A stretch of DNA of 51,923 nt, counting the filler, from Dirinaria sp. TL-2023a (Eukaryota): NCBI GenBank assembly GCA_051941275.1. It is 2 parts of 2 records of this genome, joined end to end, with 100 filler letters (N's around TTAATTAATTAA, not from the genome) between each part and the next. Parts side by side here need not be neighbours in the genome. Positions count along the whole stretch, not along the records: positions 26,044 to 51,923 come from JAVEBF010000168.1; 1 more part is not named here. The stretch is one strand, 5' to 3'. The notes under the pieces are model-generated. The model made no database searches, had not been told where the DNA came from, and saw nothing but the letters and a program-made list of their open reading frames with translations. The translations under genes were made by a program, and so were the position numbers. Within the stretch, counting starts at the first letter, position 1; every line of letters starts with the position of its first letter. This document shows, one piece after another, positions 49,332 through 51,923 of this stretch.

Positions 49332-50131
49332 CGGCCGGATTCAGGTGATCATTCTGCAAAACGCTTTTATGAGAACGCCGAGGATAACCCCGATATCTGA
49401 TACTTATTGTTTTGCATCCAAGCTTAGGAGTTTGCTGAGCGGGCTTCGGAAAAAGTGGTTCGTCGATTTTGAGAGCAGAAATTATTTTGGTCTCTTTGCT
49501 TTGCTTGCTGCACTATTGCATTGGAGCATCCTTCAGGACCAACAGAGCCTTCGCAGCTATTTTTGATCTGACATGAGCATTGTTAATGTTACAAGCTACT
49601 GCTCGCTGCTTTACTCTTATTAGATGATACGATAGAACCCGACTCTCTTTCTGCTTTCAATTCGCAATCACATTTTTTCGCTATGAGAGCCTCGCAAAGT
49701 ATAGAGCACATAAGCCTGTCCTAATGGTGTAATTGGTTCCAATCGGGGATGCGTCATTCAGGGTTCCTTTAAGGTAAGGAGTAATAATATACTAGGTAGG
49801 TAGGTAAGGTAGTGTCAGCAGTTGATAAGGTAGAGGACCCTTGATACCTATCTCGGATACCTACCTGTAGACACCTCGGCACACACGCCTGGGCTTGGCA
49901 CTCGCTAAATCTTTCCCTCTTCTTAGCTCCAATCAATATCTTGGCATGGATTCCGGCTCCACCACCGATGAAAAGTACAAGCTGCAAGAAGCTTTCTTCG
50001 CCAGCCGACTGTGGGAGATCTTGCTCGTACAATCGAGAGAGTGTTGGACAGAGCTGCTTTTCTCTTCTTCTCGTATTACATCTCAAGCAGTCAGACACCC
50101 TTTCGCATAAGCGTATCCGACCTCCGCCATC

Positions 50132-51019
50132 ATGGATCAAGCAAAGCTAGCTAAGCTGCAGCAGTCAGTCCGGATTGGTAAGTCATAGTCTTGAGAATTG
50201 CGCAACGGAATTCACACTTTGCTCTACTGTAATTTAGCTGATCGTGGTTTCGTACAGGGTGAGCATCCTCCTTTTCCCACCTCATGTCCGACCAAATACG
50301 TCAAGACTACAAACTCGTTCCCTTACTCGCTACTGCACGGTCGTTTCGGGCAAACGAGAGATCTACGATGTCATATGGCTTGGATCATAAGCTGACGCTT
50401 GGTTGGTCACAGGGGCAAGGGAACACCGCGAAGAAAACAGAAGAAAGTCCACAAGACATCGGGGACGGACGACAAGAAGCTGCAGACCTCGCTGAAGAAG
50501 CTGAACGTGCAGCCCATCCAAGCCATTGAGGAGGTGAATATGTTCAAAGAAGACGGCAACGTCATACACTTTGCTGCGCCCAAAGGTATGTCTGTCCGCA
50601 CAGCTTAGTCTCATCATGTAGAAGCGGACTACTGGAAAGTGTGCAGTCGCGTATGGACAGTAACTCTTACCACCATCGCTACATCCCATGTGGCCTACTT
50701 TACAGCTCTGCCTTTTCCGTTTTATCTCATTCTTACACCATAGGGTCACGCTAATATGGGTTTGTAACCCTCAGTCCACGCATCTGTCCCCTCCAACACA
50801 TTCGCCATCTACGGCAACGGCGAAGACAAGGAACTCACAGAGCTCGTCCCCGGCATCCTCAACCAGCTCGGACCGGACAGCCTAGCCTCGCTCCGAAAGC
50901 TGGCGGAGAGCTACCAAAGCCTGCAGAAGAAAGAGGGCGGTGGCGAGGAGAACAAGGATGACGATGACGATATCCCGGACCTGGTCGCTGGGGAGAATTT
51001 CGAGAGTAAAGTCGAGTAA
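50132..51019 (+). CDS. EGD1: Nascent polypeptide-associated complex beta subunit (BTF3); exons 50132-50177, 50258, 50413-50585, 50775-51019
   Basis: [50 protein letters not shown] | [35 protein letters not shown]. Confidence 0.97.
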
Positions 51020-51923
51020 TTAGCAAGCCGACTTTGCCCAAACGAAGTGACAACAGGGAGAAGGGGGACGCTTCTCTAGCTGTACAGCAATCTGAAGAGT
51101 AAGGTAGGGGAAGAATGATAGTTCCATCTCCTGGGTAAAAAAAGAAAAAGAAAAGAAACATAATAAAGCTTGACGGGCCTTGCAGCGGCTGCATTTTACG
51201 CCCACAGTAGGGACAGCATGCATGCTCAGTCCATGGGAAACCGGAACATTTGCCTGCAGCCGCACCTCAATGGTCTATATCCCGAAGCGCGATCTCTTTC
51301 TCACTTGCAAGCCATTCTTGCATTTCAAATTTCCCCCAAACAATCTTCTCCCGTAATGATCCCGAAAATTCGTCCTTCTCAATATGCCCCCAATTCCCGC
51401 TCGTTCTTCATGAAGCTATACCCGATACCGATACCCCTTTCCGCCCCTTTTTCACAAACAACTTCCCATTGCCCAAACAGGAACCCCCTCCCCCTTCCTC
51501 CTCAAATACTCACCCCCCCAAACAACAAACATCTCTCACCACCCACTCCAGATCCTTCTATCTTCACACTCCCGCAGCAAGCATGGTCGCCTACCTACCT
51601 ACCTACCTCCATATCTATCCATGACCCTATCAACAAATCCCATCTCTCCCCCAGTCCTAATCTTTCTCTATTTCCACCTTCCAAAATAACCCCTCCCCCG
51701 GGGCTCCTTTCTTTCCCTAGTCATTTTCTCTCTCTCTCTCTCTCTCTATATTCCCCAACATCAATCCGTCAATTCATTCATTCCATCTATAGCCTAAAAA
51801 GGCGTAAGTATGTACTAACTCCACTTAAATACAAAAAAAGTAAGGTACGGTTTCCGGGAATACGGATCATGGTACTAGAGGGGAGGATGGGAGGGGATGG
51901 ATCGAAGTTGTAATGGAAAAGGG

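Follow-up and report, generated by a model that had tools for sequence, protein, structure and literature searches.

The locus considered here raises the question of how the conserved N-terminal part of NAC-beta can be encoded when the exon that carries the start codon and the next recognisable exon are one nucleotide out of phase with each other. The gene is found at positions 50132-51019 of the window, i.e. the whole stretch of DNA that was analysed (51,923 nucleotides, filler included, from Dirinaria sp. TL-2023a). The answer favoured by the evidence set out below is that the missing nucleotide is very probably supplied by a real, constitutive one-nucleotide exon, the G at 50258, flanked by two complete and independent U2-type GT-AG introns.

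The gene, its product and the clash of reading frames

NAC-beta, known as EGD1 in yeast and BTF3 in animals, is the beta subunit of the ribosome-associated NAC chaperone. Translation of the window in the open frame that includes G 50258 yields a protein of 154 residues, which was assigned to the NAC-beta/BTF3/EGD1 family from the concurrent presence of the NAC domain, of a basic N-terminal segment and of collinearity with BTF3. The translation of exon 3 matched the Pfam NAC domain (PF01849) with an E value of 2.3e-15 and a score of 56.7 bits (cut-off, 21.3), and, over its full length (residues 1-57), it could be aligned with positions 22-78 of human BTF3 chains of solved structure (E, ~2e-17). 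The predicted protein also contains, ahead of the NAC domain, an RRK-x-x-KK segment, a motif with an established role as the ribosome anchor. A protein search with the same exon 3 translation returned 920 matches at E ≤ 1e-10, the top ones being 100% identical over 57 residues and named from Teloschistaceae lichen fungi (Xanthoria, Seirophora, Flavoplaca), which points to a lichen-forming ascomycete of this group.

The gene can be described with the following features.

49990..50131, + strand: 5′ untranslated region (minimum extent; the RNA contigs, which derive from a close relative, start at 49990-50004)
50132..50177, + strand: coding part of exon 1; ATG at 50132, 15 codons and the first base of the split Gly codon, ends ..CGG ATT G, phase 1
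50178..50257, + strand: predicted intron 1, 80 nt; donor GTAAGT, acceptor ACAG
50237-50242, + strand: branch-site-like GCTGAT of intron 1; A at 50241, 16 nt upstream of the intron's 3′ end
50258, + strand: predicted one-nucleotide exon, G; middle base of Gly codon 16 (G-G-G), context acAG/G/GTgagc
50259..50412, + strand: predicted intron 2, 154 nt; donor GTGAGC, acceptor CACAG
50391-50396, + strand: branch-site-like GCTGAC of intron 2; A at 50395
50413..50585, + strand: exon 3; starts G GGC AAG GGA ACA, phase 2; contains the basic motif and the first part of the NAC domain; covered by RNA contigs
50586..50774, + strand: intron 3, 189 nt, ordinary GT-AG; skipped with GT..AG ends in 4/4 RNA contigs
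50775..51019, + strand: coding part of exon 4; TAA at 51017-51019; covered by RNA contigs
51020..51133, + strand: 3′ untranslated region (minimum extent; RNA contigs end at 51101-51133, just before an A-rich stretch)

The split Gly codon is completed by the first base of exon 3 (50413). The downstream frame is fixed by the NAC domain and by the BTF3 alignment and, with exon 1 ending in phase 1 and exon 3 beginning in phase 2, joining them directly breaks the frame. Indeed, the direct join of 50177 to 50413 leads to a frameshift with a stop after 42 codons (approx. 27 past the junction), while inclusion of G 50258 gives a 154-codon open frame with the conserved R-I-G-G-K-G-T sequence.

Single-intron alternatives were sought by enumerating every GT/GC..AG pair in the region. 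There are 25 such combinations that maintain the frame, every one of which alters or deletes conserved residues and was rejected for this reason, and RIGGKGT was restored by none of the pairs enumerated. The nearest option would use a poor donor (GTCATA at 50182) and insert one residue to give IGKGKGT. At this locus, then, the flanking exons are one nucleotide out of phase, no canonical single intron rescues the protein, and the interval between them contains an AG/N/GT sequence that divides it into two halves of workable length (80 and 154 nt), each with its own branch site. The exon ends, both donors, acceptors and branch sites and the single G had been located by the first-pass annotation at positions that all match the window, and translation confirmed its statement that direct joining would cause a stop about 27 codons on and the loss of conserved sequence.

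Transcripts of a close relative

The RNA data consist of four runs of one lichen-metagenome sample and study, in the form of assembled contigs rather than reads; the share of sampled words in each of the four runs was 0.16-0.18. Each run provided one contig of 700-821 nt, with 95-99% identity to the window, a range which indicates that the source of the RNA was a close relative rather than the window's own strain. The contigs span the region from ~49990 to ~51133.

All four contigs align with the window to position 50175, continue with CG and resume at 50412, so that they read CGG ATC GGG GGC AAG, with five G and an in-frame I-G-G-K; they also carry a synonymous T-to-C change at 50176. The aligner placed the junction as one skip with non-canonical ends. 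The mature mRNA of the relative contains the extra nucleotide in 4/4 contigs of the one sample, and the five G that RNA spanning the junction had been predicted to contain were read in each of them. The included form was the only one found, and neither splicing intermediates nor lariats were seen, with the proviso that assembled contigs drop rare forms.

On their own, the letters of the mRNA do not reveal the origin of the extra G. A single 234-nt intron with its boundary shifted by one base, running either from GT to CA (50178-50411) or from TA to AG (50179-50412), gives exactly the mRNA of the RNA contigs; the extra G would then be that of the donor or that of the acceptor, and the internal AGGGT would be irrelevant. 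Because the mRNA could not separate these readings, the genomic DNA of orthologous loci was examined.

Survey of orthologous loci

The pattern used to scan metagenome contigs comprised the acceptor YAG, an unspecified base and the first residues of exon 3 in back-translation, with the upstream sequence left unconstrained. The scan is conditional on a phase-2 acceptor, and lineages with another gene structure are not retrievable with it. At least 115 fungal loci were matched, and full flanks were taken for 80 of them. In 107 of the 115 loci listed, exon 1 could be recognised (M..KL..Q..R-I/V/T), and among these matches it ends in phase 1 (G/GT) in 107/107 cases, so that each locus is short of one base just as the window is.

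The internal yAG/G/GT core is present in all the evaluable loci (113/113, among the matches listed), as expected from the proposal in the first-pass annotation that an AG-N-GT core should recur in orthologues. Among the eight listed loci that lack a recognisable exon 1, six have the core, four of them being cut upstream, one having its exon 1 interrupted by a further intron (L074) and one R-L in place of R-I (L096); the remaining two, with only 13 and 84 nt of upstream sequence, are not evaluable for the core.

Among the matches listed, the 107 intervals between exon 1 and exon 3 correspond to 88 distinct sequences and to 70 clusters (11-mer Jaccard ≥ 0.2), which are not phylogenetically independent. 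When flanks of at least 40 nt were required on both sides, the core was found in 88/88 sequences and 70/70 clusters of these matches. For comparison, 200 dinucleotide-preserving shuffles of each cluster representative contained it with a mean frequency of 8.4% (maximum, 37%), and intron 3 of the same genes, which was taken as a control and could be located in 63 of the 70 representatives, contained it in 0/63 cases. From its presence in every cluster, set against the shuffles and the control introns, the AG/G/GT pattern is judged not to be a product of chance.

The properties of the core were determined on the 70 cluster representatives, the best of several core candidates having been picked in four. 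The AG, the exon G, the GT and a pyrimidine at position −3 were each observed in 70/70 clusters, while in the donor that follows the microexon an A at +3 was found in 68/70 and a G at +5 in 66/70; in the 50 nt that precede the acceptor, a YTRAY motif was observed in 69/70 clusters for the internal acceptor and in 68/70 for the final one (all among the matches listed). Across the clusters the consensus is yAG/G/GTAnGy, with separate branch sites, and the window's microexon donor is of the rarer form GTGAGC. The two donors also differ from each other. The A at +3 is present in 68/70 microexon donors and in 43/70 upstream donors (Fisher p ~1e-7) and a C at +6 in 34/70 and 4/70, respectively (p ~8e-9), both p values being calculated on clusters that are not independent.

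Among the matches listed, the upstream intron would measure 53-487 nt (median, 94) and the downstream one 63-252 nt (median, 129.5); the core is never less than 53 nt from either end of the interval. The entire double-intron interval has a median of 234 nt, ~2.7 times that of the control intron 3 (88 nt), in the same set of matches. When the window was aligned with five lichen-type loci, the identity within the interval was 31-41%, and correspondence was confined to the splice sites, the branch sites and a tAG-G-GTaAG island.

These data bear directly on the single intron with a shifted boundary. Its equivalence with the one-nucleotide exon at the level of the mRNA holds in every orthologue, the donor G and the acceptor G being always present, and the non-canonical ends reported by the aligner for the RNA junction are those that it calls for. 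However, it leaves unexplained the internal yAG/G/GTRNGy element with its branch site, retained by 70/70 clusters of the matches listed within sequence that is otherwise unalignable, the distance of this element from both ends of the interval and the length of the interval itself, compared with a control intron that never carries the core. It would also need a constitutive non-GT-AG boundary in all these lineages. A shifted boundary is, thus, regarded as very improbable, both as the structure of the intron and as the origin of the extra G.

An error of sequencing or assembly, with one G missing at 50412-50415 or at 50177 next to one ordinary intron, would be compatible with the window taken by itself, in which a run of four G is found at the acceptor and the G count rests on the assembly. 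However, the same phase clash occurs in 107/107 loci of independent assemblies, and the base that follows the acceptor is A, C or T in 69/70 clusters, with no homopolymer (both among the matches listed), so that the probability of such an artefact is negligible; the homopolymer error that the first-pass annotation had indicated as a way to disprove its proposal is, in general terms, ruled out. Polymerase slippage or editing on the G run was also rejected, since 69/70 clusters of the matches listed have no G run at the junction. In the 70 clusters of these matches, the split codon ends with A in 25, T in 22, C in 22 and G in 1, a spread that fits what would be a synonymous GGN position.

Taken with the mRNA of the relative, the core of the orthologues strongly backs the initial proposal that G 50258, placed between two complete GT-AG introns, gives I-G-G-K.

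Phylogenetic breadth

The loci were named from their nearest blastx match among 80 named proteins, out of 196 database proteins retrieved (120 in one search and 120 in a second one, 76 of which were new). Class labels were given to the 80 proteins, with five lineages checked in the taxonomy. The protein is too conserved for fine taxonomic assignments, so only the closest matches were used, and 26 of the 70 clusters, with fewer than 125 residues identical to any of the 80 named proteins, were left unassigned. Representative close matches are the following.

L001: nearest Wilcoxina mikolae, 139/145 identical residues, Pezizomycetes
L007: nearest Ophiobolus disseminans, 143/144 identical residues, Dothideomycetes
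L034: nearest Rhinocladiella mackenziei, 136/141 identical residues, Eurotiomycetes
L063: nearest Mollisia scopiformis, 130/139 identical residues, Leotiomycetes

Xanthoria is placed in the Lecanoromycetes by the taxonomy. Loci closest to members of five classes imply that the arrangement predates the divergence of those classes and, from these sequence matches, it is old and widespread in the Pezizomycotina, much of which inherited it from a common ancestor. Among the matches listed, no locus was tied to Sordariomycetes or Eurotiales, an absence that is uninformative given the phase-2 anchor of the scan.

Public gene models

The 196 proteins were also used to establish how the junction is represented in public gene models. 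Only 8 of the 114 NCBI-sourced models carry the correct RIGG/KGT junction, and the other 106 are wrong at this point. In 74 of the 114 the junction that follows exon 1 is incorrect, with read-through, an added residue (IGKGKGT, IGDGKGT) or a deletion (IGKGT); 24 have no exon 1 and 8 lack K-G-T itself. Erroneous models often place invented residues directly before the basic N-terminal motif, or drop the N-terminal exon, and those of Aspergillus are wrong at the junction in several different ways. Curated protein databases may have silently corrected the protein.

Among the 82 proteins from other sources, 28 carry RIGG/KGT, mostly from contigs of ~1 kb, as expected of open frames on transcript assemblies, on the assumption that the callers of these frames do not splice. 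Exon 1 is lacking in 44 of the 82, and 43 of these 44 have S or R two residues before K-G-T, which is what the AG of the acceptor and the free base after it encode and is the signature of unspliced DNA.

Among the named models, I-G-Y-V follows exon 1 in Cladophialophora, Emmonsiellopsis and Tothia models and I-G-Y-I in Chaenotheca; I-G-Y-V is the product expected of exon 1 followed by G and GTAYGT.., but little weight was given to this indirect indication. One open frame (P0149) proceeds from exon 1 to G plus GTACGT.., to exon 3 and into intron 3, and it may derive either from a transcript from which only intron 1 had been removed or from the DNA of a species that has no intron 1; no close match to it was found among the loci examined.

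Proposed splicing pathway and possible role of the exon

In the arrangement with a one-nucleotide exon, donor, branch site and acceptor are separate for each intron, and both lengths are normal for fungi. With complete signals and a short length in each half, the two introns should be separately recognisable by the intron-definition machinery of filamentous fungi. Splicing of both would ligate ..ATT G, G and G GGC AAG.., and would rebuild the Gly codon of R-I-G-G-K-G-T, just before the basic RRK-x-KK stretch. A single base separates the 3′ splice site of intron 1 from the 5′ splice site of intron 2, so that the two splicing reactions would be set up in sequence rather than simultaneously, and the sequential removal of the introns put forward in the first-pass annotation is plausible. 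If splicing is co-transcriptional, removal of the upstream intron first would be the likelier order. Exon 1 plus the G would regenerate a usable 5′ splice site after the first ligation, with a recursion-like step in which one base is kept. Joining of exon 1 straight to exon 3 would instead produce a frameshifted and early-terminating transcript.

Such a transcript has a possible regulatory meaning, in that the one-nucleotide exon could be real and, in addition, its skipping could generate a frameshifted NMD target that tunes the dosage of NAC-beta, this being the reason for its retention. The skipped form would stop after 42 codons, and the arrangement has been kept for a very long time in many lineages. 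However, the included form was the only one in 4/4 RNA contigs, even if contigs drop rare variants, and long retention may equally reflect a low rate of exact intron loss near the 5′ ends of genes, as deduced from established models of reverse-transcriptase-mediated intron loss. NMD tuning of NAC-beta is, at this stage, pure conjecture and is considered unlikely. Similarly improbable is the more ambitious proposal that this may be the most widely conserved one-nucleotide exon so far observed in fungi, fixed in an abundant housekeeping gene before the Pezizomycetes split from the other Pezizomycotina and kept by selection instead of inertia; its double splice, recursion-like and of obligatory order, with a frameshifted and NMD-prone product when the exon is skipped, would act as a gauge that ties the dosage of NAC to splicing fidelity or capacity.

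One-nucleotide exons probe the lower limit of the spliceosome and are invisible to gene finders. The NAC-beta locus would offer at least 70 diverged natural versions of one such exon in a highly expressed gene, with genetically tractable fungi among the relatives, so that splice-site crowding, the sequence in which introns are removed and the skipping of exons could be addressed by direct experiment. A practical consequence is a repair rule for gene models, based on the search for an internal AGGGT with a phase-1 donor before it and a phase-2 acceptor after it, which could correct existing models and reveal further cases.

Comparison with known systems

A full-text literature search, with most subscription journals outside its scope, retrieved no paper in which a microexon or a one-nucleotide exon is connected with NAC-beta, EGD1 or BTF3. 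Several systems are, however, related to the proposed arrangement to different extents.

Long introns of Drosophila undergo recursive splicing by way of ratchet points, zero-length exons in which AG and GT abut and nothing is retained. The NAC-beta locus resembles them in the juxtaposition of a 3′ and a 5′ splice site and in the 5′ site that would be regenerated after the first ligation. It differs in that ratchet points serve the stepwise removal of very long introns with no base kept, whereas here the introns are short and one base would be kept. The identification of the locus as a zero-length recursive site was rejected because a G is always present between AG and GT, among the matches listed, and is found in the mRNA.

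Stwintrons, as defined in a 2017 paper (PMC5587772), are formed when an internal intron interrupts the donor, the acceptor or the branch signal of an external one, which becomes canonical only after the first excision. The likeness consists in abutting spliceosomal introns in Pezizomycotina, in excision events that are consecutive in stwintrons and plausibly so here, and in positions that are one nucleotide apart. However, in NAC-beta both introns would be complete from the start and non-overlapping, with the one base between them kept in the mRNA. With GT, branch motif and AG intact in both introns, the identity with stwintrons as described in that paper was discarded, and the comparison with them in the first-pass annotation proves to be inexact, as both introns have their splice signals uninterrupted.

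True one-nucleotide exons have been described in plants. Arabidopsis APC11 contains a one-nucleotide microexon (Guo and Liu 2015, PMC4674806), and one-nucleotide exons of APC11 and VPS55 are reported across land plants, where their omission from annotations leads to wrong N-termini (Yu et al. 2022, PMC8831610). As described in these papers, the plant exons resemble that of NAC-beta in being constitutive, flanked by two introns, deeply conserved and misannotated. They differ in belonging to another kingdom and to other genes, and plant lineages with intron loss or alternative use are documented. One of the two plant microexon papers (PMC4674806 or PMC8831610) also reports a shift from G to A in the donor adjacent to the microexon, which was read as producing a stronger site; it can be set beside the +3 A of the present microexon donor, found in 68/70 clusters of the matches listed versus 43/70 for the upstream donor.

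Among fungi, the long-read annotation of Coprinopsis cinerea includes thirteen one-nucleotide exons (PMC12230235). The five files of its supplement that were examined contain neither a NAC-beta term nor a list of the genes with one-nucleotide exons. Full-length transcript support and the frame that is broken when the exon is omitted are, according to that work, features that bring these fungal exons close to the present one, from which they differ in that Coprinopsis is a basidiomycete.

The closest precedent is the one-nucleotide exon of Fusarium CYP621A (Nelson and Syed 2026, PMC12940212), which is described as having an AG/G/GT core whose G takes the second position of a Gly codon in a conserved motif, as being supported by transcript reads and as lying in a double intron more than twice the usual intron length. 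It is the first case in a fungal gene according to its authors, and NAC-beta is not mentioned in the abstract, Results or Discussion of the paper. The core, the codon role, the phase-1/phase-2 clash and the long double intron are the same as in NAC-beta. However, CYP621A is a rarely expressed P450 and its exon was described in 20-24 genes of one genus, while here the gene encodes a housekeeping chaperone subunit and the loci are closest to members of five Pezizomycotina classes. With one-nucleotide exons already known in plants, in Fusarium CYP621A and in Coprinopsis, NAC-beta is a further case and not a new kind, the value of which lies in the depth of its conservation, in the abundant housekeeping gene that contains it and in the scale of the misannotation that it explains.

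Reading frame of P0149 across the junction

The database NAC-beta protein P0149 (JGI source) is an open frame of 105 aa that starts in exon 1, continues as I-G-Y-V.., which corresponds to exon 1 joined to the single G of the microexon and then to GTACGT.., passes through an 87-nt stretch resembling intron 2, enters exon 3 and runs on into intron 3. Such a path would be that of either a transcript from which only intron 1 had been removed, or the DNA of a species in which intron 1 has been lost. If P0149 derives from a transcript lacking intron 1 only, splicing of the upstream intron first would be shown.

Gene models in Aspergillus

Comparison of the NAC-beta proteins of Aspergillus section Fumigati (P0174, P0180, P0182, P0189, P0161 and P0166) revealed N-termini that disagree among themselves, the faults being read-through, translation of exon 1 in the wrong frame and fusion with a neighbouring domain (PF16663). 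Thus, these protein models suggest that the same NAC-beta annotation problem may be present in this medically important genus.

Repeats around the gene

The following repeats were found around the NAC-beta gene in the window:

49793-49812, short (TAGG)n-like run, upstream of the gene
51590-51610, (CCTA)n-like run, downstream of the gene, in the opposite orientation to the (TAGG)n-like run
51730-51750, (CT)n microsatellite, downstream of the gene

The first two, spaced by approximately 1.8 kb, bracket the gene, and the (CT)n microsatellite lies inside a long pyrimidine-rich, proline-codon-like stretch (approx. 51380-51760).

Core and donor in the orthologous loci

Among the orthologous fungal loci, L074 carries an additional intron within exon 1, after M-D-H-E-K-L-A-R, whereas in L006/L056 and L011 the upstream intron is unusually long, at 475-487 nt, and the downstream intron is short, at 82 nt. 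The yAG|G|GT core is intact in all four.

When the two donors of the same genes were compared across the L001-L115 set, whose 70 clusters are not phylogenetically independent, A was found at position +3 of the microexon donor in 68/70 clusters, as opposed to 43/70 at the upstream donor, and C at position +6 in 34/70 as opposed to 4/70. In a plant study, a change from G to A is reported for the donor adjoining a 1-nt microexon.
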